This document shows, one piece after another, positions 1,401 through 34,920 of a stretch of DNA of 64,000 bases. This stretch comes from Flaccisagitta enflata. Lineage: Eukaryota. Numbering within the stretch: the stretch's first letter is position 1; every line of letters starts with the position of its first letter. The notes under the pieces were generated by a model. That model was given only the letters and a program-made list of their open reading frames with translations, was not told the origin of the DNA and did not search any database. Location of the stretch: NCBI GenBank assembly GCA_965153355.1, contig OZ231126.1, forward strand, positions 25,544,001 through 25,608,000, in the 5' to 3' direction. Position numbers and translations under genes: made by a program.

Positions 1401-1583
1401 CAGCAATGTTAAAGATAGTAGATTGTACGGCTCATTTTCAATATTCCTGTAATGATGTATCTAAATTGCACTGATGGGCATTTTATTCAATCCAATCCAA
1501 CTCAAGAACATTATCCCCAACATCATCATTATCATCATTATCATCATTATCATCATTATCATTATCATTATCATTATCATTAT

Positions 1584-2494
1584 TGTTAGAAATGTATGTC
1601 CGTCCGTTTCTTAGGTATGTGTGCTTTTGTCTCTTTTGCGTGCTTTTGGCTTTTTCTCTTTCTCTACTATTCAATGCCCGCGTCTTTTGTTTCTTGCCAT
1701 TTTTTATATTGAACGCTAGATGGGTAACCATATGGTTGCGCCTTGATTTTGTGCCATTTGTTTTTACTACATAGGCAAATATACGTAACTCGTCCTTCGT
1801 ATCATCCAATTTTTGGATTGATTGATTTTATTTATTTACGGCATTGCTTCCTAAAGTGATTGATTGATTTTTCGTGATCGATTGAATGCGCCCTTGGAAT
1901 TCACTAATTTCAATAATCTCTCATCTTTTTATTGCAGATAAACTGAACGGACAATTAACGTTAGTTTGACTTCGACAGACTGTGGGTTGAAACCAACGAA
2001 AGTGGGCCTAAAAGTAAGTTTTATAGACGCGTCATTGCTTTTATTACGTTGTTTTTATCTTGTTTCCGGTCTGTTATTTTTGTCTTTTGCCCTTTTGCAT
2101 TTTTATTGCCGGATTTTAGCATGGTTTTTACCGCTTGTCTCGATCAGCTTGCTATAGGGATGATATGGATGAATCTAATGGGATGGGCCGGGGCAGGGGC
2201 AGGTATTATCAGGTGGCATGGGCTCTGAAGAAGATGAACATGTTGTCATGTGCTGTTTCTGTCCTTTATTGTGTCCTATCTCGATTTCATGTTATCTTTT
2301 GCGTTTGCTGATCACAATTAACGCCCACTTTCCCTTTCATTTTTTCCCCCTCTCTTCAGTTGTTGAAATTTTTATGGAATAAACGAGACGATCGCCTTCC
2401 TATTTTCCAATCGGCCAACTTTCTTTCACCACAAGTCGTCAGTCAGATAGACGCTCATAGACAGTGCCAGCTGAAACTCGTGGGCGTAATTATA
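1584..2494 (+). repeat. 5' LTR of BEL/Pao element
   Basis: Starts TGTTAGAAATG; aligns with 13943-14853 up to GGGCGTAATTATA, after which the two copies diverge. Confidence 0.9.
2356..2383 (+). promoter_or_regulatory. Putative LTR initiator (TCAGTT, +1 = A2358) and AATAAA polyadenylation signal defining a short R region
   Basis: TCAGTT at 2356-2361 matches the arthropod-type Inr consensus; AATAAA at 2378-2383 (3' LTR copies 14715-14720 and 14737-14742). This spacing fits a U3-R-U5 layout. The same site also resembles a 3' splice site. Confidence 0.55.
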
Positions 2495-2505
2495 TTTCAA
2501 CAATT
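2495..2505 (+). other. Primer-binding-site position; not tRNA-like, complementary to LTR nt 2358-2368
   Basis: TTTCAACAATT directly follows the 5' LTR end. It pairs with AGTTGTTGAAA (10 Watson-Crick pairs plus 1 G-U). No TGG-starting tRNA PBS lies between the LTR and the gag ATG. Confidence 0.6.
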
Positions 2506-2557
2506 TAAAACGACTCGATTCTTTCCCCCTCTTCGACCTCTGAAAACGAAATTGACA

Positions 2558-5500
2558 ATGGCAGCCGCGCGCAACGACGCATACCGCCTCGACCGCTTAA
2601 CGTCATCTCGGGTATCTCACTTCGGTTTGAATCAGTGTCCGAGGTCGAATCGCTTGCGCGCAATGAGGAACGACATCACTGCGGAAATGGAAGGATGCCG
2701 GCGCCTTTTCGACGCCGTCGCTACTTGCACCGAAGGAACGAATGACTCCGACGACGCCGCCTGTGAATCAGATGGCGCTCGACACGGACTTCGGGATATG
2801 GTTTACGACTTCACATCGTATGCAAGGCAAATGGCGCTCGACTCGATGCCCGGCGACCCTCTTCGATTCGCGGGCGTCTACTTTGCGTCGAATCGGCGCG
2901 AATGGGACTCCATGCGTTTCTTTGATCGTGAAAACTATCCAGAGGGTTTTCCTTCCAACGCCGACATCGTGAACGCAGTGCACAATGACATTGGGAATCG
3001 AAAAAGACCCGTCAACGAATCTCATGGAACAGTCTCCCAACTGACACTCACGCCGCCCGTGACAATGTTACTGGCGCCTCCGACTCCAAGGATGCGAACG
3101 TCTTCGCCAAACCCTGACGGATCCGAGTATCTACCACTTCCGGCCCCGCGGCATGGTGCGCACTCCAACTGGCGGCCAATTTTTAAATCTGCCGCCGATC
3201 CAAAGAGGAGATGCCGCCAATCAATGGGTATCAGATTTGGTCTCGGAAATTGAACCTGCGCGTGCGTCTCCAATGGAGCAAGCTGACGACATGCTTGCGG
3301 ATCTCGACGACGCCGACGCTCTCGCAAGAGGCCGCGGGATCATCAACGGATTGACGCCGCAGGAGAGGGCGAGGCGACGCCTCGTCAACAGGAGTGCTGA
3401 GAGAGACAGATGGGGCAGGCAATTGGAGGAGGAAATGCGACAAGGCTGTCGGCTGATTGACGATATGCAGCAGCAACAACGGGAGGAGGAACAGCGACAG
3501 CTACAGGAGCAACAGCAGCAGCATCAATTGCAGATGCAGCAGCAGCACCCCAACAGCAACGTCAACTCCACCAACCACAGGAGCAGCAGCAAACGACGGC
3601 TCAACGGCAGCAGCAAGAGCTGTTGCAGCAGCAGCAGTTGCAGCAACTCCAACAATTTTGTCAACAAGATCCTGCAGCCGGCGCTCAACAACAACAACAA
3701 TACTACCAACAGCAATAAACAACAGCAACATAACAACAACAAGAGCTGCGACAACACCAAACGGCAATGCAGCCGCACGAACAACAACAACAGCGGCAAA
3801 ACGATGCAGGAGAAAATACGCAACAGCAACAGCAGCAGCAACAGCAACCTTCCGCCGCAATCCCAGCGGTGGTAGTGGATCCTCCAGCTTCAAACAACCA
3901 TCTTGTCGAAAGCATGAACGTCAGTGAGGAGACAGAAGAAGAGAGACAGCAACGCCTTGCAGATCAACGTCTGCGCATGATGGCTGAAGGTGAAGGTGGT
4001 GGTGCAGCAACAGCTCCAAAGGCGCCGATCGCGGTGCCACTGGGATTCCAACAGCGAAGCTCATCACAAGAAGACAAAGAGTTATATGACAGAATGTGTA
4101 ACTTTCGCCAGCAGCAGCAACGAGATGAAGATAGAAGAGCAGGAGTATTCAACAATGCGGCAGAAATGCAACGAAAGCACTGGAATAGCCTGAACGACGG
4201 CGGTATTGGTGGAGCTTTAGAGCAGCGGGATGTGAAGCTTAGACAACTGTCTGAGCTGGACCAGCAGCAGCCGCAGCATCTGCCAAAAGACCGTCGATCT
4301 ATCTTCAGAAATTTCAATCCGGGATTGTTCAATTCGAACATAAGGCAACGTCATGTGTAGTCAGTGGAAACGTCCGTCAAGCAGCCGATGCAGCAGCAGC
4401 AACAGCTGGAGCAGCAGCAGCAGCAAGGGGATAGCTGCGCGTCAACTGCAGCAGCAGAATGAACAGCAACAGCGTCCTGACCAGCAACAGCAGCTTCAAC
4501 ATCAACAGTGGCAGCAACAACGGCTTCAACAACAGCAACATCAGGATCAGCATCATCAAACCCCAGCAGCAACGATTCTCCTTACCGCACCGGAAGTGAT
4601 CTTCGAGAAGCAGATTGGTTCTGCTAGAAGGGAGACTGGTCTTCCTCATCAAGAGGAAAAGGTCTTCAACACAGCCGGAAGCGGAGGTGATGCAACGGAG
4701 GCGATGCGCAGGAGGCAGAAGCAAGAGGCCGCTGACGCGATGTTGGCCCAGCAGCTGCAAGATAAAGAAAGAAGAAAAGTCGCTCCCAAGAAGACAACGA
4801 GTGGATTGCAGCCAAAGGCGCCGAAAGTAGCTAGGTAGCGCTCTAGCAATAAGCGGAAGTCATCCAGCAGAATCAACGTTTGCTGGCAAGAAGTGGAGAA
4901 GTCGGAAGATGCAGATTGCAGGAGAGACTTTGCCTGCCGCAGCGAGAGCAGAAGAGAGACAACGAAAAGAAGAACAACAACAGCGACAGTACGTCCCGCC
5001 AAGATTTTGATGCCCCCAGATTCCATCAAGATGATCGTCAACAACAAGTGAATCAGCAAGAGGAAGTTGGGTGGAGTGTAAAAACCACCAAGAAGAGATC
5101 TCCGGTAAAAGTCGGGGGTCAATACGCCTTCATCCAACAACCCCCAGCATCATCAAGTGGTGGAGCATCACTGGCAGCCCGTCAACTGAAGTCCATGTTC
5201 AGATGCCCAACAATCCGGCTCTGGACAGGTTTTTGGAAAGAGCGACGTACAATGATCTCATGCGAGCAAGGGAGGTCGGCCTCAAAGCGTTGGAGAGAGC
5301 AAGACCTGAGAAGCCCTGCAGAGCTTTCATCCACCGACTTCATGATGGAAGAGGAAGTTCAAGATGCTGAGAAGCATGAGGGCTTGACGCAAATGGACAT
5401 CTTATTGGAATTGCCTAAGTGGTTTGCTGGTCCGGCAAAAGAGATCATCGAAACTGCGACTATTGATGCAACTGAAGCGACAGCAAGAGGAGAAATTGAC

Positions 5501-6346
5501 GACGCCGCAAAAATGGACGCTGTTCATGGCGAAGGCGCTGCAAAATACTGGCGGCGCTGTTCAACGAAATCGTCGCGGAGGGCGGTAAGATCCAGTCGCC
5601 ACTCATGCAAGGCATTTCAATTTGATCTGTCTGCAAGGTTGCAAAAGGCAAAGAAGATTGCGAGGGCCTGTGGAGAAGTGCAACAATGCTATCGTGACGA
5701 GCTGCTGCAGGAGACCCTCAACAAGAGGGTCCCTCATCTTGTGATAAATTCTGGGAAAAGCAACATGAAGCAGCCTAAAATGGACAATTATTTTCATTCG
5801 ACAACTTGGTCAATATGATCGAGACATGGGCGGTGATTTCAGCGCAACAAAGGCGCAAGCTGCAAACAGCATCAGTGGCAGCAGTCGCAACTACAGAGAA
5901 AGAAGCGCCATCATCATATGAAGATGCTTGGATCAATGGCTAGTAAAAGACGCAGTCGACGGACCGCTGCAACCTGCAGTGGAATGCATCAAACAGAAGA
6001 ATGTCATCAGCTGTTAGAGTTGGAAGTGGACGCGAGAGTTCGCAAGATCATGTCTCGTCGCCTTTGCTTCCACTGTCTCGCGCCAGGACACAACGCCAAA
6101 GGATGCGCTAACAGACCGACTTGCCAAACCTGCAAGAAGCCGCACGCAACGATTCTCCACGGGCGCACCTACAAGAAAGAAGAAAAGGAAGAGAAGAAAG
6201 GAGAAAATAAGCAGGGAAATAAAGTACCGCTGGCTCCCTCAAAAAGTCAGGAGGATGTGGGCTGCAGCAAAGTACCAACAGCTCCGTCGACGGCGGAGGC
6301 AGCCAATCCTACGGAGGTGATTTCTTCTACTAACGCCACGGCATGA
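2558..6346 (+). pseudogene. Gag of BEL/Pao element: Gln-rich N-terminus and three C-terminal Cys/His knuckles; multiple frameshifts
   Basis: Chain of overlapping + ORFs from ATG 2558. ORF 5918-6346 has the Pao triple-knuckle pattern (TCSGMHQTEEC with the first Cys degraded, CFHCLAPGHNAKGC, CQTCKKPHATILH). Confidence 0.85.
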
Positions 6347-6365
6347 CTACGGTGACGGCACGGCG

Positions 6366-6900
6366 TTGCGGTCCGTCTCTTCATTCGACGACGTTGTCCG
6401 TCCGATTGTTCCAGTGACTATCATAAACAATTTTTCGGGTGCGCAGAGGACGATAGGATTTACTATGATCGACCCAGGCGCTGATCGCGACGTGATCAGT
6501 ACCAATGTCATTCGCAGTCTTCTGATTCCAACAAAACAGTGCAAATGACGGTGATTACTGTGGGAAGTCATGTTGTTGAGGATCGTTTCATCGCATCATT
6601 CACTATGCAATCGGCCGACGAAGAATACGCGTCGACTGCCAACGACGCATTGGTAAGGGATTTGTTAACGAGTGAACGCGACATTCCTCCTTTTCTCCGC
6701 GCGACCTACCTGGACCAACCTCACATCGAAGGCATAAAATTTCCAGAAGCTGGAAAGGCTGTGTGATGATGATCATCGGAGCGGCGCATGCGGATGCCGC
6801 CGTCGCTCAAGAAATCCGCCGAGGGCCTTCTGGATCTTTGACTTGCTTCAGATGTCTATTCGGTTGGACTGTATGTGGAAAACGGGCAGAGAGGACGAGA
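6366..6900 (+). pseudogene. Aspartic protease region of BEL/Pao Pol
   Basis: TMIDPGADRDVI resembles the D-[ST]-G active site; downstream IIGA and LFGWTVCG motifs are typical of Pao proteases. Confidence 0.7.
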
Positions 6901-7199
6901 TATTGCGTCGATCACCGCTATCGTGCGACGGATGACCGTGTCCTCAACGACAATATCGATCGCATCTCGACAATCGCGTCCTCAACAGCAACATTGACCG
7001 CATTCCTACTCATGACTTTGCATCAAGCAATCGTCTAGCAAGAGGAGATGGGTGATTCCCTTGAAAATGTCAGAGCGTGCAAAACGTTAGAGTGAAAAGA
7101 CATATATTTTTGCCTAATTGTGAAAAAGTACTTTGCTCCCACATGGAAATTTCATCACGAGAAAATCATGGAGATTCTGAGAAGAGTAAAATCACGACC

Positions 7200-7895
7200 A
7201 ACTGCGATGAAGCGACTCGGTAACCAACGTCTGCGCTTCAAGCGTGATCCAGCCTTCAAAGAGAGAGTCTTCCGTGAAATCGAGAAGTTTTAATGAAACG
7301 GGAGTGGCGATTGAGATTGATAACGTCGACGACGACGACGGCATTGAGAAACCGCGCTGGCATTTGCCGCTTCACATTGTTGAACTGCGCGGAAAACGCG
7401 CGTATGTCACGATGCGCGTGCGGCGACCGACGGGATCTCACTCAATGATTTGCTCGCCGGAGGTCCAAACTTGATGAATAGCTTAATGGACATCCTCATG
7501 CTTTGGGCTGGGAAGATCGCCTTATGTGTGACATAGCGTTTTTTCCACCAGATCCGCGCGTCCATCCTGACGACGCTGGGACTCTGTTCAGATTCTTCTT
7601 TTGGTTCAAAGATCGTACTCTACGAGAAGCCATTTTGAATCTGTTCTTATCACATGTCTTCGGCAGCCAATCCAGCTCATTCGTCACGTCTTTCACCGTC
7701 AGAAAGCATGCTGAAGTAATCCGGCCCAAATACCCCTACAATGTCTACGATCTTATTCGCTATGGTTTTTACATCGACGACCGAAGTGGGGGTGGAGATT
7801 CGGTCGACGCAGCACCGCAGTTGAAGGTGGACTCGGTGGCGGATATGGCTGACTGCGTGATGGACCTTGTGAAGTGGAAAAGTAACGCGCGGTAA
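7200..7895 (+). pseudogene. Reverse transcriptase region of BEL/Pao Pol
   Basis: WHLPLHIV, frameshifted GPNLMNSL, CDIAFF, HVFGSQSSSF, catalytic FYIDD, and LVKWKSN. Confidence 0.85.
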
Positions 7896-8298
7896 TTGAT
7901 GGATGGAGATCCGAACGTGCCAATTCCCATCTCAGATAAGCAAGATGATGCGCCGAACGAAGGTGTTGGGCGGGTCCATGGCTTCCGGCGGAAGACGTCT
8001 TCATCTTCATCTGCGACGAGGAATTCAAAACTCTTAGAGCAAAAACACCTCATCACCTTGCCCCCATGCAATAAACTTATGATCCATTGGGACGGAGCCC
8101 AAGCAAGATACATCGGCAGACGACATCTTCAACTCTGTCGGCCCACATGGCAGTGGGATGGGATTCGCCCTTGGAAGAGAGCGTCAAGGAATCCTTCTTC
8201 CGCTACACTTTATCTTGGCCCCTTTTCACAACAATACCGAATTGAACGCTGGTGGAATGGCGGCGCTGCATAATAGTGACATTGGGTGGAAATAACAA

Positions 8299-8877
8299 TT
8301 GAGATCTTTTTTGGTGCGGCCTGCTCAAAAAGGCGGATATGGAGCAGTTGCATATCGACGTCAAGTCAATCGAGATGGAGATGTTCACATTTCATTCATC
8401 GCCTCCAAATCCCACGCCATTCCACTTAATCCCAAACGTGCTTCTCATCACAACAGCGTTCCACGCGTCAAGATTGTATCCGCAGAAAAAGCAGTGCAGC
8501 TCAAACGCTGCGGAAGGACCATCGAATTGGACAATCTCGTCGTCAGATTTTGGTCTGATTCTGAATCTGCACTGAAGATGATTTACAATCCGGCAAAACT
8601 GAGAATTGTATTTTTCGCCAATCGCCTCTCCAAGATCCATAGCGGGTCTGATCCTCAACAGTGGCGCTGGGTTGATTCTACAAACAACCCGGCGGACCAC
8701 TGCAGCAGAGGCATCCAGGCCCACGAAGCCGAAAAATGGCGTCAATTCCATCACGGCCCTGCATTTTTGCGCCTTCTCTCCCGAAGATCAATGGCCAAGA
8801 CGAACATCGCGACGTGCCCTATTTCTGCACAAGTCGCCGCATTGTATGGGGCTGAAAGTGAAAAGAAACAAGGCTGA
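8299..8877 (+). pseudogene. RNase H (Pao-type) region
   Basis: GYGAVAY, FIASKS, PRVKIVSA, FWSDSESAL, FFANRLSKI, WRWVDSTNNPADHCSRG. Confidence 0.9.
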
Positions 8878-9306
8878 CGCGATACTTCTTGCGGCAGCTT
8901 CTCGGGAAAATGGATGGCATAAATTGCGGATCATCGGCATGGTTCTTATCGCAGTCAAAAGGTGGAGAGCGTATCCAAGGGCGAAGACACGAGCAGCAAG
9001 GGATCTCCTTCCTAAACCGGAAGTGACGCAAGACGTTTTGGAGGAGGCGCGCAAACAGCTCGTCAAGTCAATGCAGCGGCATCATTATTCAGACGTCTTC
9101 GAACAATTGGAGTTGGGAAAAGTCTTCAAACCAGAAAGCGTCATGACTTCATCATAAAAATAAAGAGATGTGCGGGAATTGAATCCTTTTTTGTCGATTT
9201 ACTTTACTTGCATTATTCGCGTCGGTAGTCGGCTGAAAACGCCGACATCGCAACAGACGCTAAATTTCCCTTCATCCTGCCGCCAAAGACGAGAAATGTA
9301 CAATCA

Positions 9307-10419
9307 TTGATTCGCCATTATCATCACAATGATTTTCATGCGGGTGCAAAGCATACATTGTGCCAACCACGCCAATTTGTGTGGATTACAAAAGGTCTTC
9401 AGGCTGTCAAGAGCGTCGCCAACACGTGCTTCAGATGCCAGAAGAACTTCAAAAACAACGCAAACCAGCAAATGGCCTATCTCCCACCAAATCGCGTCAA
9501 TCCTGCACCTGACTTTGCAGAGACTGGATTGGATGTCATGGGGCACTTCCTAGTTAAGATGAACGGGCGTGCTGATCACAAGGTGTGGATCGCAGTGTTC
9601 ACCTGTTTCGTCACGCGCCGTCCATGTGGAATTGCTCTCTCAACATGTCAGCCGATGCGATGGTAAATGAATCATCCGCTTTGCAGCAAGGCGCCCAGGA
9701 AACCGCCGTTTCACATCAGATTGCGGGACGAATCTAGTAGGCGCCAATAATATCCTCAAGAAGGAGATGGAAGCTTGGAACCGCCGTCAACTCCCGAATT
9801 GCAGCGGCGCGGCCTTCGGTGGGATTTCATCACGACGAGAACACCCCACTATGGAGGGGTGTGGGAGAGAATCGTCGCTCTCTTTAAGCGCCATCTTGCT
9901 TCCATCTCGACTGGCGCCATCCTCCACGTCGACGTGGCTTCAACACTGCTGCGGAGCTGTGAAGTTGAAGGAATCCTCAATCGTCGTCCTCTGACAGCGC
10001 TCAGCGATGATCCAAATGACTCTGAGGCCCTTACACCGAATCATATCTTAAATCCATCAACATCCGGCCATGCCCCTCTGGATTCAGTGCAACAAGGCGT
10101 CAACTCTGACGCTGACTCTGCGAAGGTTCAATGGAGGCGTGCACCGCGTGTGGATGCATTTTGGAAATCGTGGAGGGTCGAATATTTGTCGCTTCTTCAC
10201 GCGCGAAGCAAATGGTCGAGATCCCAGAAAGACTTTGCGGTGGATGACATGGTCATCGTGGCGGACGCAACGCCGCCTCGTCACAATTGGAGTTTAGGAC
10301 GTGCCGCGGGCGTCGAGGGTTCGCCAGCCCATGTCCGGAGGGCTCACATCCGGCGCCAAGATGGAAAGATCGTGACGAAAGACCGTACGAAGCTCGTGCG
10401 GCTGGAATTGGACTCATAA
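9307..10419 (+). pseudogene. Integrase of BEL/Pao element
   Basis: HH-CC zinc motif (HHNDFHAG...CFRC), GLDVMG, frameshifted SDCGTNLVG, PHYGGVWER, and a typical Pao C-terminal region ending at TAA 10419. Confidence 0.92.
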
Positions 10420-10699
10420 AAACGCTGTTTTGAGAGAGAGAGAAAGGCGCATGGGCCTGTCCATTAGTAACTATAGATAAGGAGTGATTGAAACTCTGAC
10501 TTGTTATATTTACAAAGAGTTGTTATTATTCATATTTGGTTCTCGATTATCCATGCTTTCATCTTTCCTCTTGTCAATTATAAAAGGTCCATTTTCACTT
10601 ACACATCAAACACTGATTCATTCGCTCTGTCTATATGTACATATTATTGTGCCAAATCCGTTTTTACCATTATCAGTTCATCAATACGAACATTTCAAA

Positions 10700-13140
10700 G
10701 CTTCCGCTGACGACGTCATTCCATCTACGAAGTCAGTTCGCATCTTGAAGTCGCTCTGTCGAGCCAAGATGTCCTGTCAGCAGCGCCTCGAGGCAGAAGC
10801 CGACGTGTCGACGCGTACTGGATCCTTGGATCTTCATCGACTCTTCACCCGACGGCTCGACTCGAGAAGGATCTGCATCCACGACGTCGTTCGGGGCGGA
10901 GGAGGAGGCTGTCGTGTTGGCAGCCTTCAATGGCGACCTTCGCTCAGCCGTGAGACGCAAAACATGGTTAACAAGGATGATAGCGCTGGTAAACGTCAAC
11001 AGCCATCCAACCAACGCCGCTGATCCATGCCGCTCTCTCTCCATTGGTGGTCATCAAAGATGGAGGTTCGAGGCGGATCTCAATCAATCCGCCGCTGACG
11101 GATTTATCCATCACACGGCGCGCCATCATCATCGGATTTGCCCTCATCGCCTCGCCAATTCTGCCTTGATTTCGGCCGCCCAGCGCCTCGTGATCAAGCG
11201 TCTGCAGCCGCTAGTCAACGAAGCGGGGGCGAAGAGAGAGAGAGATCGGTCAATGATGGGAGCAGGGAGGAGAGGAGGAGGAGGGGATGGAGACAGAGGA
11301 GGAGGTGTTAGTGAATGGGGAGGCGGTGGAGAAAGACATTGACCCGAAGTGTGGACACTGCGACGCCGGAAGAGAAACACCAACGGATGCAGGCGCGTTG
11401 GTGGTATCGTATCATCAGTCCGGACGTCGGCATCTCTCCTCTTCAAAGAGTTTGAAAAACTTCCAGTATGCTGCAACAAACAAACTCTCATGCGCTCATC
11501 GGCTAATCAAACAGAGCTTGGCTCGGAGACTCTGGAGCGCAAAATCCAAAGCAACAAAAAAAGGAGGGAGCATGATAAGGAGGTATTCTGCCGTATTGTC
11601 CAGGCGATTTAAGAGGAAGAATGCGGTCTAAGCCTCTGGTGCAACTGCAAAGTCATCTGCAGCAATTTCCGTCGACGCTGCCGCAACTCCACCAGCGGCA
11701 TTTGTGCTCGACGCAGCCGCAGCTACATCAGCTGCAATTCACTCTACAGCATCAGGAAGTCGTCAATCGCGGCCTGGATTGGTTCATCCCCCAAATCAGC
11801 AGCAACAGGGTCCTCGTGACGTCACTCCCTCACAACAGTCGGGCAGGGATCACGCGGGAAAGACTTCCACAAACGCGCAACGTGCCGAGTCATCAAAAGG
11901 GCCAAATTCCAAAGCAAAGGCTCCCTCTTCAAGCGCCTCCAGGCGCGCCCCTGCAGCAGTAACGCCCAAAGGCCAAGGAGAAGCTTCATGCGGTTCGTCG
12001 ACGGCAACGTTGGCAGCAACCCAGAAGCTGAATCAGGCGCCTGGGGCAGCGGCAGCAAAGGGGAAGAAGACCAAGAGCGCTGGGAAGAAGCATAAAGCAG
12101 CAACCAAGGGAGGTTCTACTTATGGTGCTTCGGCGTCCGCTGTTAAACCTCAAGTCTCTGGTCAGCAGACGGGAGCGTCTTCCTCTCACTCGCCGCCCTC
12201 AAAAGCAGCGGTAGGAAGCGAACTAGTTGGCGGTGCTTCAGCATCTGTTAAAGCTGGTGTAGCGCCTCGTCAGCAAACCGAGCCTGCCCAAGGTCCGCAG
12301 CAAGTGCAGAACCCGCCTCCCCCGTCGAATCCAGCCTTTTGATCCTCGCACAGACACCATCGCGAGTCATTACAGCGAGAAGCCTCTTTACTGACCTCAA
12401 ATGCTCCATTGGGGGTGGTAAAGAATTGAAGCATCAAGGCTTCCGAAAGACTTCTTCGCGTAGCTGCCGCCGCGCCAACGAGTGGAAGCGGCTCGTCAAG
12501 TCTTAGACGAGAGGATTCGCCGAAATATCCAAAAGGAGAGAGACGATGCTCGGCCGAGGCAGCAATGGCTGCGGACAATGAGGTGGTCAAAGGCAATAAG
12601 TTTGTGTCGTGGAACTGGAGAAGCAGCTTGAAAAGGAGAAGCAGGCCTGTGCGATGAAGGCTAAGAAGAAAGAGGAAGCGGTGGAACGCGGAGCTGCGGC
12701 TATGGCCGTCGACTCCAAAACAGCGTCTGCTGTGCGCCCTAACTCTCGACTGGCGCCGAATTGTGATGCAGCATCTCCACCTCCTGCGTCTTCTCCAGCA
12801 GAAAAAGCCGGTCAGCAGATCCTGCCGAAAAGACGCTCCCAAGCCTGGGAATAAGAAAAATCGAACCAGGCCTTGGGAAAATCAGACCGCCAGCTAAACG
12901 CTGATTGGTGCCACGCCCAGTTGCTGTTCAATTTAACTACCAATTTGCAACATGGCGCGGAGAGCGCCGCCATTCGCTGAGGATCGTATTCCACCATCAC
13001 ATCCTCATCCCATCGATGGACAGGCCGGCCAAGTCAGGGGCGCTACCCGGGGCGTGGGAATGACGCCCGCCCGGGCCCAAGCAAAACGCCCGCGTGTTAC
13101 TGCGGGTTTGGGGCGGGTTGAGGTTGAGTTTTTGTGGTAA
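10700..13140 (+). pseudogene. Additional ORF region (ORF3) of unknown function inside the BEL/Pao element
   Basis: GC-rich, codon-like chain of overlapping + ORFs (10914-11342, 11287-11631, 11704-12342, 12609-12854) between AT-rich spacers; no recognisable env signal peptide or transmembrane segment. Confidence 0.55.
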
Positions 13141-13803
13141 ATTTGAATCTGTGTACGATAAGAACTTTACTAATCAATCTGCCCTATTTCTTCTTCTTCC
13201 TTCCCTTCGGGAGTGATTCACTCACGGCTGCACCACCTGCGCCTTTCGATGCGGTCGCCGCTGGACGACATCATTCATCGCCGCCCACGAGCTGACAGGT
13301 GTTGGAGCCGGAATGACCCGCTCGTCTCTGTAACGGAGAAGGCGCAGGTGATGTGGTCGTTCCATGATGCTTACTAATTTTTCTTTATTTAACAGATTCG
13401 CTTTTATTATATAGTTAGTAATTTATTTAATTTTGTCTTGTTTTGTTTGGTTCTTGGGAAGTGTACATTTTTTGGTTGTGTTTGTTTTTAGACATGGTCT
13501 TTTTAGTCATGGCGCGAATACTTTCGTATGACATGTTTAGTAGTATGCCCCTACTCATTATTTTCCACTCCTCAAGTCAAATCCCAGGCTTGGAGTGCTC
13601 CAAGGCCCGTTCCCCCTTTCCCCCCCCCTTTCCCCTCAACTTTTTCAGAACGGGTGCCTCAACCTCCTCGTCGCCGCCTCGTTTCCATCCGCGCCATCGT
13701 GATCGTTGAAAATTTGCTGGTGGTGGATCCTTTCCGGACGGGAATCATCATTCGTGCAGTCGCGATCTGTTGATAGTTAGGTGGGATGTAAGAGGCGGTG
13801 GAC

Positions 13804-13824
13804 GGGGGGGGGGAGGGGCGGGGC
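13804..13824 (+). other. Polypurine-tract-like G run
   Basis: GGGGGGGGGGAGGGGCGGGGC immediately followed by TGTATC at 13825. Confidence 0.55.
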
Positions 13825-13942
13825 TGTATCTATGTAAATTTTTTTTTAAGGAAGGTAGTATCGGTTTTTTAGTAGGGTTTCCCCGACTGGAAACTAGATG
13901 TCGGATTTTTGAAATTCGTGAAATTCCAAAAATGTGCAGAAA

Positions 13943-14853
13943 TGTTAGAAATGTAAGGTCCGTCCGGCTGCATGTGTGCTTTTGGTGTCTCTTTTGCGTG
14001 CTTTGGCTTTTTCTCTTTCTCTACTATTCAATGCCTGCGTCTTTTGTTTCTTGCCATTTTTTATATTGAACGCTAGATGGTAACCAACAACTATATGGTT
14101 GCGCCTCTTGATTTTGTGCCATTTGTTTTTACTACGTAGGCAAATATACGTAACTCGCCCTTCGTATCATCCAATTTTTGGATTGATTGATTTTATTTAT
14201 TTACGGCATTGCTTCCTAAAGTGATTGATTGATTTTTCGTGATCGATTGAATGCGCCTTGGAATTCACTAATTTCCAATCTCTCATCTTTTTTATTGCAG
14301 ATAAACTGAACGGACAACTAACGTTAGTTTGACGACAGACTGTGGGTTGAAACCAACGAAAGTGGGCCTAAAAGTAAGTTTTATAGACGCGTCATTGCTT
14401 TTATTAACGTTGTTTTTATCTTGTTTCCGGTCTGTTATTTTTGTCTTTTTACCCTTTGCATTTTTATTGCCGGATTTTAGCATGGTTTTTACCGCTTGCC
14501 CGATCAGCTTGCTATAGGGATGATATGGATGAATCTAATGGGATGGGCCGGGGCAGGGGCAGGTATTATCAGGTGGCATGGGCTCTGAAGAAGATGAACA
14601 TGTTGTCATGTGCTGTTTCTGTCCTTTATTGTGTCCTATCTCGATTTCATGTTATCTTTTGCGTTTGCTGATCACAATTAACGCCCACTTTCCCTTTCAT
14701 TTTTCCCCCTCTCTTCAGTTGTTGAAATTTTTATGGAATAAACGAGACGATCGCCTTCCTATTTTCCAATCGGCCAACTTTCTTTCACCACAAGTCGTCA
14801 GTCAGATAGACGCTCATAGACAGTGCCAGTTGAAACTCGTGGGCGTAATTATA
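13943..14853 (+). repeat. 3' LTR of BEL/Pao element (may extend upstream to 13825)
   Basis: Highly similar to 1584-2494 with scattered small indels and substitutions; a G-rich tract followed by TGT lies 118 bp further upstream. Confidence 0.88.
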
Positions 14854-14888
14854 ATTATCATCATCCATCATCCATCATCCACCATCCA

Positions 14889-15727
<839 letters not shown>

Positions 15728-27848: not shown

Positions 27849-28355
27849 TGTAGTGCCGCGCTTTTCCCTTCTTACCCTCTATGATATCTGGGTTGGGTCC
27901 TTCCCTTTCCTTCTCTGGTTTTTCCCTGCTTTCTTCCTTCTCTCTGGCTGTTGGTCACGGGTCTCCTCTTCCGTGGCTTCATCTTCCCCACTTTGGCCTA
28001 CTTAAGGGAGGTGTGACTGCAGTCTGGGAGGGGCCACTACCCTTCCCCTGGCGTCTCATTTTCTCTGAGCAAGATGTCCATTTGGATATCACCTCTCTCC
28101 CCTTAGGACTGACCTCATTCTTAGGATACCCCCCCCCTCTTAGGCTGGTTATGCAGAGACGACAGATTCATTAGGTCTTAGGGTCTTGATTAGGGCTATA
28201 TTATGGTTTATTTGCCTAGTTTGGTTCTTTCTCAGTACATTCTCCCCGCGGGCTTTTAGGGATTTTCTCTAGGAGTTTTTGGCAGGCACCCCATCTTTGA
28301 GCATTCTACCCCTGGACCCCGACGATAGCATCCTCCCGCCTACCCCGGCATATCA
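27849..28355 (+). repeat. 5' LTR (507 bp)
   Basis: TGTAGTGCCG...GGCATATCA. Confidence 0.95.
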
Positions 28356-28356
28356 G

Positions 28357-28372
28357 TGGTGCTTTCGGCCGG
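28357..28372 (+). other. tRNA primer-binding site (closest to tRNA-Gly 3' ends from memory; imperfect match)
   Basis: TGGTGCTTTCGGCCGG begins 1 nt after the 5' LTR. Confidence 0.7.
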
Positions 28373-30237
28373 TTCTGGCATATTTTTCAGTATGTTACCC
28401 TAGCTAGCTGAGAATAGGACCCCACTAGGAAGTTTAGATTTTTTTTTTTTTAGTGACCATGAGACACCTGTCACTTTTGAAGACTGAGCACTGCAGGCTC
28501 TTTCAGAGAAAGGTACAAGTTTGAGGTATCTTATCCCTCCCACTCCTCTTGGCTTTACTATTTCCCTATCATGGAAGTGGTGATAGCTCGCCCACCTTAC
28601 CCCTTTTGGCACATGCTTTCCCGTAATGCCGTAGTTTAGATGGGCTCAAAAGGGCGAAAGCGGGATACACCGAGCATGATCGGACAGCCAGTACCCCGAG
28701 TCATAGTGTAGGCCGCGCTGTGATAGATGGGTGATTTTTTTCGCTAACGTTGAGGCAGTCGGCTAGTTCAATTCCCCTAGGACTCCAATCAGACTCCTAC
28801 AGTCATTGGCTGGGAGCAGATCCGGACCCCCCACTGTTGGAGCAAGAGTCTCCTGCGCAAATGGTGGAAGACGGCATGGCCTCAAGAATAAGGTGCTCTG
28901 GCACTTATTATCACTCCGCCTTCTGACTTGTTCATGGCCATTTTTGAAACCTATCAAGACGCTGATTACCCTCTTGTCTCAGCTTGTCTCTTCATCTCAA
29001 CTCACTCCTACTCCAAAGCTTCAATCATCTAACTGCAAGGTCATCTTATCTACCATCATCTAACTGTCACATCTTCTTACCCTGTCATCAATCCTTATGG
29101 AATATCATCTGATTGTCCGCACCTGTTTGGACAAATGGCGGAATCCTTCTTGGACAATTGCTCGAACATCTTGTCCAACAGAATCACAAAAGTGTCTCAG
29201 GAACATCGTTTGTGGACTGAGACTTTACCTGTGTGTCAAGACAACCCTCTACTGGCAGAACCCAATCAAAGCAGCAACTTGAAGTCAAGTCAGCAGCCCC
29301 CGCTGGCAGTTGTACACTGGTACAAGAAGAGAAGATGTACGGATATTGTTAACAATGCGACACGTTTCGATGAGAAGACAATGGTATAAAAACACTCCTA
29401 CCACGCTGTGTGGGGTGGGGTGCATCCATTTGTTTTTCTTGGACAATGGCACAGACAGTGGCATAGTACCATAGACGACGGCAAAGATAATGACAAACAC
29501 AACGGCAAAGACGATGGAAGAGGACAGTGGCGACTATGGACAGGGGCGTGCTTGAAGATACTCTGACTCGTCTCTGTGACTTATGAAAATTTTGTGATTT
29601 TGTGTACCCGTTGCCAAAGGTTACCAAAAAAAAAAAAAAAAAAAAAAAAGAGACAAATACAGCGTGCAAAGAAAAAAAAACAAATACGAAAGTGTGCAAA
29701 AAAAAGATAAGAAAAAGAAAGCGGAAGAAAGGAAAAAGTAAAAGAAATACAAATTCAAGGAGAAAATTGCAGCTGAAAAAAAGAAGAAACCGCGCATAGT
29801 GCACAAAAACCGTAAGGCAACGGGATTCTATTTCTTGCCCCCTCAAGTTTTTTTTCTCCTCTCTCTTAACATGCTCATCGTCTATGTTACGCATAGCACT
29901 GTCGCATGTTTTCCCGTTATTATTACTTTCCGTTGTATAAATTAACTCGCGTGGAAAATTGTAAAGTTATTCTTACTCCGTTTCCTTGTCTCCCTGCTCG
30001 ATTGCTAATTGTTTTTGTTACGTCGTAATGTTATATCTATTGCCGTCATTTTAAGTGTCTCGTAATAGATTTTTGTTTTCTTCTTGCGTAGACGATCAAT
30101 CTCAACCGGCGCCTGAATTATCATTTTTTGAACTCCGACATGGAACAACGTCCCAGGCCGACCACTGTGGGGAAAGGCTTAGATTACCTGTTGGTTTTGT
30201 CTTTTATTTCGCTTCATTATGCTTCTCCATCCGCCAA

Positions 30238-30503
30238 CCTATCTCGTTGGTCCTATCTCGTTGGTCCTATCTCGTTGGTCCTATCTCGTTGGTCCTATCT
30301 CGTTGGTCCTATCTCGTTGGTCCTATCTCGTTGGTCCTATCTCGTTTGTCCTATCTCGTTTGTCCTATCTCGTTTGTCCTATCTCGTTTGTCCTATCTCG
30401 TTTGTCCTATCTCGTTTGTCCTATCTCGTTTGTCCTATCTCGTTTGTCCTATCTCGTTTGTCCTATCTCGTTTGTCCTATCTCGTTTGTCCTATCTCGTT
30501 TGT
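30238..30503. repeat. 14-bp minisatellite, 19 units
   Basis: 7 x CCTATCTCGTTGGT followed by 12 x CCTATCTCGTTTGT. Confidence 0.95.
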
Positions 30504-32851
30504 CCTATCGTCCAGTCTATCCGTATGTTTGAACTATTTCTGATCAGTTTGTCTGTCCATAATTTGTCTGTCAGTCGCGCGCGGCGTGCACGTCATTCCC
30601 GCGCGTCATTCAATTTTGTTTCTTTTATTGCTAACTTCGCCCGACGCTTAGTTGCGTGGTCTGTAAACTCACTCCTGCCATGCTGTTTGGACCGGGGTGT
30701 ATCCACGTCCCCTGTTATTTTTTTTCTCTTTTGACGGAATCTTGCGGGTAAGTTCAATAAGGTACTAGTTAGTTTCTAGGATGCGTGGTAACGCAACCTT
30801 CATTAAAACACACTCCTGCCATTGTTTGGACCGGGGTGTATCCTTGTGGTAACTGCCGGAGATGGTAACTTCTGACGGACAGACAAGCGCGCACCGCTGG
30901 TGTTATTCTTTTATCTTTAGTTCCTACTTGTTCCCCTTTCCCTCTTGGTTTTGTTTCATATTGTGTACACTTTTTTTTTATAAGAACATCGGGTTTTTTT
31001 TTCTGGAGCCTTTGGGAAATGTAGATAGCCACTGGTGGGATGACTGCGGCGTTCTTGATTTCTGGGTGATTTCGGGGCTTGATTGGGTTCTTATAAAAAA
31101 AAGTGTATTGCTACCATTTTTTTTCTCCCCAACCCCCCGTTATTGATATATTTTTTCCCCCTATTTGCATCGTGTGCTTTCTCAACCTCACCCCAGGCTT
31201 TCATGTCTTTTTCTTCCCCCCCCCCCCTATAGCGCCTTGTTTATTTTGGACTTATATGTTATATGTTTCTCTTTCCTCTTTTGACCCACTAGGTTAAATC
31301 TTGACGCGAACGCGGCGTATGGGTGCGTTTCAGTTGTCCATATGGGCAGATTTTGAACCTCTTACGCCGACGTGTCCGTAAGTTTAGCTTTCATTTCCCC
31401 CTTCTTATGTTATTTTCCCTCTTGCCCTGTTAGCTTCCACCGATCTCTCCCCATTCTTTTACATCTTATATTTTCCCTCTTATGGATACCCCTTCATTTT
31501 GGTTCTATAATATTTCTCTTCATTTTTTTTCTTCGCTCCCTCTAATCGATTTCTGATTTACTCATGCTTCGCCCATTGACGTTATTCGCGTTTTGTTTTG
31601 TTTTTTGTCTTTTCTGTTTAATTTTTTTTTCCCCTCTAGACTCCCTAGGTTAAACCTGGTGTGGGCGTGACATGTGTATATATATAGGTACCAATCAGTT
31701 GCCCACTTGGGCAGAGTTTCGGAGCTCTTACGACGCCACGCTACTGTCGACGTGTCCGTAAGTTTAACCTTTATTTCCCCCTTCTTTTTTTTTCCCTCTA
31801 GCCCCGTTAGTTTCTCCCAATCTCTCCCCATTCTTCACATTTTACATTTTTCCCTATGTTTTTTTTCTCTTGCCCTGTTAGCTCCACCCGCGTCTTTTCC
31901 CCTAACACTTTACTTCTCTTCACTTTACGTTTCTTTCGCTTTTCTCTTGTTTATGGTACTTTTTCTTTTTCCTATTTTTTTTCCTCCACTTTTTCCCCCT
32001 CTGACTCGGCGCCTTGTTACGTAGTTCTTGGGCTTGTATTAGTTGCCCCCCTTGGCGTCGTTTTAGTGCACCGATCTCTCCCCACTTTCACGTCTCATTC
32101 ATTTTCTTTTCTCCTTACTTAAAGATCCCCGTTCGCGTTCGGTCCTGCGTATATTTGCCTTTGTAAGGACATTCATTCCCTTTACTTGATTTTCGATCTA
32201 GTAATTCCCCTCTCATTTGTGTTTTGGATTTCATTTGTGTCGTTTGAATTTTTCCCCGTCGAACTCGCTAGGTTGAACCTGGCGTGAAAGTGACATTTGG
32301 TTATGTATCAGTTGCCCATATGGGCAGATCTTGAAGCCAAATTGCCACCGCGCCAATTTTGCAGATGGATAACAGTTGCCCACTTGGGCAGAGCTCTGGA
32401 CCCTCCCGTCCACACGCTGTTGGTCTGTCCGTTGGTTTGTTATGATTTGAAAAAAATGATAGGGACTAAGTGTTGGCGCATCTTGATTTAGGTGAAAACA
32501 ACAACAGAAGAGTGTTCCTGCCATTCTGTTTGGACCGGGATGCTAAACATGTTTTGTTTGCCTGTGTTGAGTTTGTCCGTTTGTACGTGTACGCTGTACA
32601 CGGGCTCCACTGTCTGTACAAGTCGCTGATGTTAAGTTGCCTGGGTCACTGGTTTGGTTTGTCTTTCTCAGGACCGCCGCCTCCAAACAGGCACGAACGT
32701 ACGACCGCTGCTCGGGCCTAACCTACCCACCCCCCCTGCATTTGACCTCTTTAACCATCCCCGGCCCTCGTGGATTATTATCATTGTTATCTTGATTTTT
32801 ATTGTTGGTCATTATTACTGTCTATTTTTACTATTATTTATTCATTTATTA

Positions 32852-32936
<85 letters not shown>

Positions 32937-33031
32937 GATTAAATGATTATTATTGTTACTGTTGGTTGTTGTGCTTGTTTTTTTTTTTAGTCTGCTGTTT
33001 TGGGTGTTTTTTTTTGTTTTGTCTTGAATGT

Positions 33032-33082
<51 letters not shown>

Positions 33083-33121
33083 GTGCCTTTTGTGTTATTG
33101 CTTTTGTCTTGTTTTTTTTTT

Positions 33122-33152
<31 letters not shown>

Positions 33153-34401
33153 CGTTTTTTTGTTTTTTTTGTTTTTTTTTTGTTTTTTTTTTTTTTCTTT
33201 TTCGCCCCTGTTTCCTTTTGTGTGATTTGTTCCTTTTTTTTTTTCCTTTTTTTTTTGCTTGTTTTCTTGCTATTTTTTTCTTTTTCTTTTTTGTTTAGTT
33301 ATGTTTTTTCTTGTTTCTTACACGGTCACTATGTATCCTTGTCACGTTTAAGTTGCCTACGTGGGCAAGCATTATTGGCCGCCGCCGCGCGATTGGGCCG
33401 TGTCATGACCTGATAGTAAGCCTGTTCACTCGATCATATGATTGCTTGGTTCGTACTCGTTCCCTAAGATGTTCATTTGATCATTTGATCATTCACGTGC
33501 TTGCTTATTCCCTCATTTACTCCCTCACAGTAGGTCACGGCACGGCATACTAAGACAAATGTTGTCGCATCGGCAATTACAATGGAATGGCGCTCGGAGG
33601 AATCCTTCAAGCGATGGCTGCGCGGCGGAGTCTCGGAAGTACGCCCACGTCTTCAAATTTTCTGGGCCGAGCTTCGCCCCATTTTGGACAGGACATGGCC
33701 AGGTTTGCTCAGTCGCTCGTTCGCTCGCTTGTCCCGCGTTGGTTTGCATGTGTTCGCTTGATTGTTCATTTGTTCATGGTTGGTTCATCTGTCCATTCAC
33801 ACCCCTGTTTGGTGTTCATTCATTGGCCCATTCACGCTTTGTTCCACTCTTGATCTGGTCATGCCCTGCCCAAGTCAGTTACACGCTGAGTACGTGTATA
33901 TAAGGCTACATGCACATACGCGCCTACGGAGTTCAAGACAACTGCGACGCAATGACACAGCGTGGAGATAATGCGTCATGATCGATCTAGAGATGGCTCT
34001 TCAACGGAATTTGATACATTGGACAACTTTGCGCAGATCTTTTTACCGTTTCTGATTGTCAATGTATTCTCGCTTGGGTCATGTATGATTCTTCGCCGTT
34101 TGTGTGTCTATAAGCATACCAGAATTGTATTACTGTTACGCGGTATTGCTTTTTCATTTATTTCCCGTCCATAGTAGACAATGACGTTATTTTGAGACAT
34201 TGCGCAGTTGATCATAGCATAATTTATTTTCGTGTTGGCTTAATTGTAGTAGCGTATTGCTCGGCGTGTTACACACTCTTTAGCACACATGTGCTAGTGT
34301 GATTTTTTTTTTTATTTGATATTTTCTTAGTGATAGGAATGGGGGTCTCTTCGTCTTAGGATTAGCTACTCATTTTGACGCTGAGGACATCGTCTTGGTG
34401 T

Positions 34402-34414
34402 GAGGGGGAGCAAC
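34402..34414 (+). other. Polypurine tract
   Basis: GAGGGGGAGCAAC immediately before the 3' LTR, preceded by TGAGGACA. Confidence 0.75.
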
Positions 34415-34920
34415 TGTAGTGCCGCGCTTTTCCCTTCTTACCCTCTATGATATCTGGGTTGGGTCCTTCCCTTTCCTTCTCTGGTTTTTCCCTGCTTTCT
34501 TCCTTCTCTCTGGCTGTTGGTCACGGGTCTCCTCTTCCGTGGCTTCATCTTCCCCACTTTGGCCTACTTAAGGGAGGTGTGACTGCAGTCTGGGAGGGGC
34601 CACTACCCTTCCCCTGGCGTCTCATTTTCTCTGAGCAAGATGTCCATTTGGATATCACCTCTCTCCCCTTAGGACTGACCTCATTCTTAGGATACCCCCC
34701 CCTCTTAGGCTGGTTATGCAGAGACGACAGATTCATTAGGTCTTAGGGTCTTGATTAGGGCTATATTATGGTTTATTTGCCTAGTTTGGTTCTTTCTCAG
34801 TACATTCTCCCCGCGGGCTTTTAGGGATTTTCTCTAGGAGTTTTTGGCAGGCACCCCATCTTTGAGCATTCTACCCCTGGACCCCGACGATAGCATCCTC
34901 CCGCCTACCCCGGCATATCA
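34415..34920 (+). repeat. 3' LTR (506 bp)
   Basis: Copy of 27849-28355. Confidence 0.95.

Follow-up and report, generated by a model that had tools for sequence, protein, structure and literature searches.

The window, a stretch of 64 kb of DNA that was analysed as a whole, carries at positions 1584-14853 an element of 13.3 kb which, judged by its domain matches, is a degenerate BEL/Pao LTR retrotransposon (Table 1). Its first bases are TGTTAG, and 11.4 kb of broken reading frames lie between its two LTRs, which are 95% alike (882/925 identities, 28 gap positions). The element is bounded by the 5-bp duplication ATTAT, which sits in an ATC-rich (ATCATT)n microsatellite and is weaker evidence than usual. 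Among ten frame pieces scanned against Pfam, three scored above the curated cut-off, one gave a sub-threshold match to DUF3911 and six were without a match. The matches comprise PF05380 Peptidase_A17, named 'Pao retrotransposon peptidase' (30.2 bits against a cutoff of 22.3), PF17921 Integrase_H2C2 at 9229-9663 and PF18701 DUF5641 at 9751-10416, the last of which we take to be typical of BEL/Pao. They bear out the BEL/Pao assignment made in the first-pass annotation of this DNA; all are BEL/Pao-type, and no pol feature of Ty3/gypsy chromoviruses was found among them. The pol of this copy is broken, and tblastn with nine gag and pol pieces detected no other BEL/Pao remnants in the rest of the window.

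The gag region contains a long glutamine-rich CAG/CAA tract (3457-4860), and the ~3.5 kb between the integrase and the 3' LTR (10480-13940) hold low-complexity frames only, with no Pfam match among the pieces tested. Because of these two regions the copy exceeds the 4.2-10 kb given for BEL/Pao in the available text of the ICTV profile (PMC8742986).

This BEL/Pao family is very abundant in its host (organism A), with 8266 contigs from run X1 and 8436 from run X2, and is present in marine metagenomes too. The copy studied here is flanked by an older direct duplication (950-1399 and 14955-15655, 83-86% identical) and was apparently inserted in the microsatellite between two copies of a ~630-bp unit. 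A second LTR element occupies 27849-34920. Its LTRs of 507-510 bp are 99.6% identical, with canonical TG...CA ends, and the target-site duplication is CTAAA. A primer site of the TGG type, which may resemble the tRNA-Gly type, stands 1 nt after the 5' LTR. Since it has no long ORFs, this second element is probably non-autonomous.

Table 1. Features of the BEL/Pao element and its immediate borders (window coordinates).
Feature	Position	Strand	Basis or remark
Target-site duplication ATTAT, 5'	1579..1583	+	Same as 14854-14858
5' LTR, 911 bp, TG...TA	1584..2494	+	Alignment to 3' LTR; end backed by junctions of other copies
TCAGTT, initiator-like	2356..2361	+	Contains TCAGT, which recurs in the LTR only at 2439
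Candidate self-primer AGTTGTTGAAA, proposed first 11 nt of the RNA	2358..2368	+	Sole 11/11 pairing site in the LTR
AATAAA	2378..2383	+	Only one in the LTR; 20 nt after A2358
Predicted U5 hairpin	2451..2487	+	MFE and centroid folds; 7 nt 5' of the 11-mer
Putative primer-binding 11-mer TTTCAACAATT	2495..2505	+	Adjoins the LTR end
gag start, ATG at 2558; first open stretch of broken gag	2558..3250	+	No Pfam match
pol fragment, Pao-type Peptidase_A17	8296..8874	+	Pfam E 5.2e-07
Integrase fragments, Integrase_H2C2 and DUF5641	9229..10416	+	Pfam E 9.1e-08, 2.5e-16
3' LTR	13943..14853	+	Alignment to 5' LTR
Target-site duplication ATTAT, 3'	14854..14858	+	Same as 5' flank

Boundaries of the LTR

Homology between the two LTRs ends after ...GGGCGTAATTATA (2494 in the 5' copy, 14853 in the 3' copy), past which the 5' copy continues into TTTCAACAATTTAAAACG and the 3' copy into ATTATCATCATCC. 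The frame from 2312 is open across this end, and its translation was used to query a protein collection. Seven related proteins were found, 5 among a first set of 6 candidates and 2 among a second set of 69. The six that extend beyond the LTR end have ...QCQLKLVGV in common, which takes them to the GTA at 2486-2488. Three of these then enter unrelated flanks and leave the LTR at a point equivalent to 2492-2494: P0004 proceeds with L-I and then VMFRLWILYDD..., P0006 with I-Y and then SYSHTHTHT..., a CA-repeat flank, and P0007 with I-T and then VCFFFHIFGIPC. All four LTR-flank junctions, these three foreign ones known at the protein level and that of the 3' LTR in the window, end in ...TATA or one substitution away from it, and the ACN codon of P0007 makes a CA end possible in that copy alone. 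The LTR end at 2494, which the first-pass annotation had placed by LTR homology, is upheld both by the alignment of the two LTRs and by the junctions of other copies, and the LTR termini, as read from these junctions, are the non-canonical TG...TA.

Two of the three proteins that run into flanks, P0006 and P0007, carry the source label 'merc', which may denote a transcript catalogue. If 'merc' does hold transcripts, LTR copies are read through into their flanks in RNA that starts upstream of 2358.

The LTR contains two TCAGT motifs, at 2356 and 2439, and a single AATAAA, at 2378, and a motif scan of the LTR confirmed the position of TCAGTT relative to the AATAAA from which the first-pass annotation had argued. 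The motif makes A2358 the proposed transcript start, and R, provided that the LTR has one, must begin near 2358, since a start at the second TCAGT (2439) falls downstream of AATAAA. The LTR would accordingly divide into U3 (1584-2357), R (2358 to ~2409) and U5 (to 2494). Positions 2356-2361 can be read equally well as the end of a pyrimidine tract followed by a CAG splice acceptor.

The 11-mer behind the LTR

Between 2495 and the gag ATG at 2558 no TGG was seen by eye, in agreement with the earlier claim that a TGG-type tRNA primer-binding site is missing after the LTR (2495-2557). The 18-nt primer site for tRNA-Arg or tRNA-Gly, a feature of BEL/Pao, was found neither in 2495-2557 of the window element nor in a related metagenome locus, L018. 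The sequence that adjoins the LTR, TTTCAACAATT (2495-2505), is complementary to AGTTGTTGAAA (2358-2368) through 10 Watson-Crick pairs and one G·U, and recomputation of this complementarity, on which the first-pass annotation was built, found every coordinate correct. The pairing gains U2369:A2494, giving 12 pairs in total, with an unbroken Watson-Crick run of 10 bp formed by 2360-2369 with 2494-2503. The 11/11 partner is unique in the LTR, the next best site pairing at 9 positions (at 1808).

Of 5000 shuffled LTRs, 51 yielded a full 11-pair duplex and 8 a full duplex that included 10 or more Watson-Crick pairs; the first 1000 shuffles keep dinucleotides and the remainder base composition only. 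With at most one mismatch, the 11-mer occurs 7 times in the window against 4.78 expected, and the post-LTR 11-mer of the second, canonical element, which served as a control, forms 10/11 pairs within its own LTR. The complementarity by itself is thus a roughly 1-in-100 event, only modestly unusual; the position of the partner, whose first base is the A of a TCAGT and which precedes the sole AATAAA by 20 nt, adds weight to the case. In the predicted fold of 2358-2510, positions 2359-2369 are paired with 2494-2504 in both the MFE and the centroid structures, and a hairpin, possibly a U5-IR-like stem-loop, is predicted at 2451-2487, the overall z-score being only -1.35, with 19 of 200 shuffles folding as well.

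In searches for other copies, the LTR-end 18-mer had no matches in viral contigs, among which the integrase fragment found no relative; it matched 15 loci in prokaryotic genome contigs, none of them related, and 20 loci in metagenome contigs, of which only L018 is related. The junction of L018 reads GTAATTTATA-TTTCAACAATT-TAAAAACG. Three of the proteins that cross the LTR end add further LTR-leader junctions: P0003 reads N-I-F-Q-Q-F-K-K and P0008 reads F-I-F-Q-Q-F-K-K, while P0005, its frame shifted by the extra base of L018, reads T-Y-I-S-T-I and then a stop. The 11-mer TTTCAACAATT is kept at all five LTR-leader junctions, those of the window and L018 being known at the DNA level and those of P0003, P0005 and P0008 at the protein level; the two frames used by the latter place the constraint on different codon positions. 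The 4-5 bases ahead of it appear in five forms and the A-run behind it has 4, 5 or 6 As; among the variant rows listed for the read contigs, an extra A behind 2506 accounts for about one third of the depth. A TGG-type primer site occurs at none of the five junctions (0/5). The first-pass annotation had allowed that other copies might carry a normal tRNA primer-binding site deleted here; they carry the same 11-mer, in 4/4 of the other junctions.

The proposed primer is constant as well. AGTTGTTGAAA is unchanged in both LTRs of the window and in L018, and the residues Q-L-L-K encoded over it are kept in 7/7 database proteins, in which synonymous changes are invisible. T2504 is present at 5/5 junctions and G2359 in the three LTR copies known as DNA, and the substitution C2471T, found in the 3' LTR and in L018, retains its pair in the predicted hairpin as G·U. 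The expectation that the complementarity would be conserved in relatives therefore held in one respect, both partners being constant in all copies, and not in the other: no compensatory change between them was seen, as both are invariant in every copy examined. The putative pairing stands unrefuted, yet it gains no positive support from covariation. In the three LTR DNA copies, variable columns number 74/575 in 1584-2140, 2/217 in 2141-2357 and 3/139 in 2358-2494, and this uneven divergence (13% against 1-2%) suggests constraint or gene conversion acting on the promoter-proximal U3, R and U5.

Three copies of TGTT(A)GAAAT lie in and beside the LTR: at the start of U3 (1584-1593), at 2361-2369, at the proposed start of R, and inverted at 2494-2502. 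The inverted near-copy differs from the LTR start by one indel (TGTTAGAAAT at 2494-2502 versus TGTTGAAAT at the LTR start). Neither this relation of the 11-mer to the LTR start nor the TG...TA ends had been described in the first-pass annotation.

Candidate modes of priming

In any LTR element, U5 ends at the 3' end of the minus-strand primer. Given an LTR end at 2494, the primer has to bind at 2495 or only a few bases away, and it cannot be a CCA-ended tRNA, since the sequence there does not pair with a CCA end. In our best reading this BEL/Pao family likely starts reverse transcription by Tf1-type self-priming, a proposal to which we give somewhat more belief than doubt. We infer the following course from the sequence. 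Transcription would begin at A2358 in the 5' LTR, and the first 11 nt of the RNA (AGUUGUUGAAA) would fold back on TTTCAACAATT (2495-2505), directly after U5; the RNase H of the element would cut after nt 11, and the freed 3' end would be extended into U5, so that U5, and hence the LTR, would end at 2494. The candidate primer, taken from the start of R, has 11 nt, the same length as the Tf1 self-primer.

Against self-priming stand the conserved wobble G2359·T2504, the LTR end in TA instead of the usual CA, and the inverted match to the U3 terminus, for which the model has no explanation. Tf1-type replication copies the site anew from the primer, which should tend to erase mismatches, and a perfect site would be expected to result; the lasting G·U is thus a mild objection. 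One way out, offered as speculation, is that plus-strand copying might stop before the capped, possibly methylated first two nt.

The primer could also come from the host without being the 3' end of a mature tRNA, for example a tRNA half or another small RNA ending in ...UUGUUGAAA, and the match to 2358-2368 would then be due to chance or to RNA folding (a U5-leader stem). We consider this unlikely, though it deserves to be weighed. Half-tRNA priming is established in Ty1/copia lineages according to the available text of PMC6317226, and the occurrence of the complementarity in ~1% of shuffles, the 10/11 pairs of the control element and the lack of covariation between the pairing partners also speak for a host RNA; the conserved G·U would be easier to keep if the site were not recopied from 2358-2368. 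The RNA required would, however, be very A+U-rich, and a host primer leaves unexplained why the partner starts at an initiator-like A and why this A lies 20 nt ahead of the single AATAAA. ARAGORN found no tRNA genes in the 64-kb window, and Rfam gave no matches across the window and none in 2300-2700 at E up to 1; this lack of any tRNA gene or tRNA-like RNA within the window counts against a host primer and says little on the rest of the genome.

Self-priming could also be combined with another function of the site. In this variant, which we regard as distinctly improbable, the family is self-primed and the 11-mer has a second role as an inverted near-copy of the U3 terminus: cDNA that keeps the primer-templated extension would show an integrase-end look-alike beyond the non-canonical TA terminus. 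If true, such a role would tie together the motif in its three places, the TG...TA ends and, possibly, single-LTR tandems.

Single-LTR tandems come into question through L018 and the sequencing depth. Positions 1-2034 of L018 run in the order internal 3' end, one LTR, leader and gag, an arrangement that reflects a junction of the tandem or circle type, or else two LTRs collapsed into one during assembly. The depth tables, which come in 54-nt bins and list 20 out of 260 loose ends and 40 out of 116 variant rows, are too coarse to place the LTR end, and the runs disagree on the depth past 2494. In X3, arithmetic on these tables has 39.8 of 44.8 depth units running on past 2494 to 2506, whereas the share that reaches 2506 is ~31% in X8, ~28% in X1 and ~15% in X2. 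The share in X3 exceeds what is expected if at least half of the LTRs abut flanks, and is not easily reconciled with the model; together with the layout of L018, this excess could reflect single-LTR tandems or assembly collapse. The high-depth contigs of X3 and X8 both break at 2489, because the spacer there varies between GTAAAT (P0003) and GTAATT.

These observations raise a further explanation, improbable in our view, in which the family would multiply or survive for the most part in tandem arrays with shared single LTRs, or through recombination, the post-LTR bases being kept for reasons other than minus-strand priming. The order of segments in L018 and the depth that runs past the LTR end in X3 would fit such arrays, and in S. 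pombe Tf tandems with one shared LTR arise via homology of the primer-binding site, as described in the available part of PMC11042837. Against such arrays, L018 may owe its single LTR to the collapse of 5' and 3' LTRs in assembly, some copies are dispersed, with flanks unrelated to one another, the window copy has a target-site duplication, and a primer at the U5 edge is required by any LTR element.

Scarcely credible, finally, is that the family LTR truly ends in ...ATTTCAACA (2502), as a canonical TGT...ACA with a 9-10 nt terminal inverted repeat, the 3' LTR here having lost 8 bp and the 11-mer being mostly LTR: ATTTCAACA (2494-2502) is the reverse complement of the first ten LTR bases with one indel, a kind of inverted match found in 386/200000 random 31-mers (~0.2%), it finishes in CA, and in X3 most LTR depth seems to run on to ~2510, but P0004, P0006 and P0007 are without residues encoded by TTTCAACA in either frame, the 3' LTR of the window stops at the same base and is followed by the matching 5-bp duplication, and in X8, X1 and X2 only the ~15-31% of LTR depth given above reaches 2506. 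An LTR end at TTTCAACA (2502) with a truncated 3' LTR, a possibility that the first-pass annotation had itself raised, is ruled out by 4/4 junctions that diverge at 2492-2494 and lack TTTCAACA.

Relation to known systems

As far as the available text of PMC6317226 goes, proof of self-priming is confined to the Tf1 group of Ty3/gypsy elements, with predictions for some Ty1/copia and Tcn1 lineages. A full-text literature search, with subscription journals and supplements outside its scope, found no report of self-priming in BEL/Pao. Self-priming of the element described here, if true, would be new for BEL/Pao and would mean that all three LTR superfamilies reached it independently. Annotation pipelines that require a tRNA-type site and TG...CA ends would then miss or mis-trim the family, one of the commonest repeats in its host.

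The canonical BEL/Pao elements (Belpaoviridae, Semotivirus) have in common with the window element their domain content, their LTRs and the 5-bp target-site duplication. They are described in the accessible text of the ICTV profile as tRNA-primed, with an 18-nt site for tRNA-Arg or tRNA-Gly, and as 4.2-10 kb long (PMC8742986), whereas the window element has no such 18-nt site and measures 13.3 kb.

Half-tRNA priming of the copia type likewise uses a site without a match to the CCA end, but the site in the window element is A+T-rich and has its partner in the element's own LTR. The plant Ty1/copia TAR elements (Houba, Osr-1) and the Tcn1 clade, for which self-priming is predicted in the portion of the plant-wide survey that is available, rest on the same type of in-silico evidence, in other superfamilies and hosts (PMC6317226). 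The criterion given there calls for 10 bp or more of complementarity between the 5' LTR and a site starting 0-5 bp after it (PMC6317226), against which the window element has 9 contiguous Watson-Crick pairs from offset 0, 10 with the last LTR base and 11 with the wobble.

A close likeness exists to the Tf1/sushi Ty3/gypsy chromoviruses, including Tf1 and Tf2 of S. pombe and Tj1 of S. japonicus. In the texts available, Tf1 is an established case of self-priming and Tj1 a proposed one (PMC4600332, PMC5341516), and about half of the Tf1 cDNA retains the site as a single-stranded tail, which leads to single-LTR tandem insertions (PMC11042837). The window element shares with this group the lack of a tRNA-type site, a post-LTR stretch complementary to the putative start of the RNA, a proposed primer of 11 nt and a hairpin predicted in U5 beside the site. 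It differs in belonging to another superfamily, as indicated by the Pao-type peptidase and DUF5641, and in having one G·U pair and a TA instead of a CA end. If it is self-primed, the element would be functionally Tf1-like, yet a member of BEL/Pao and not of the Tf1 clade.
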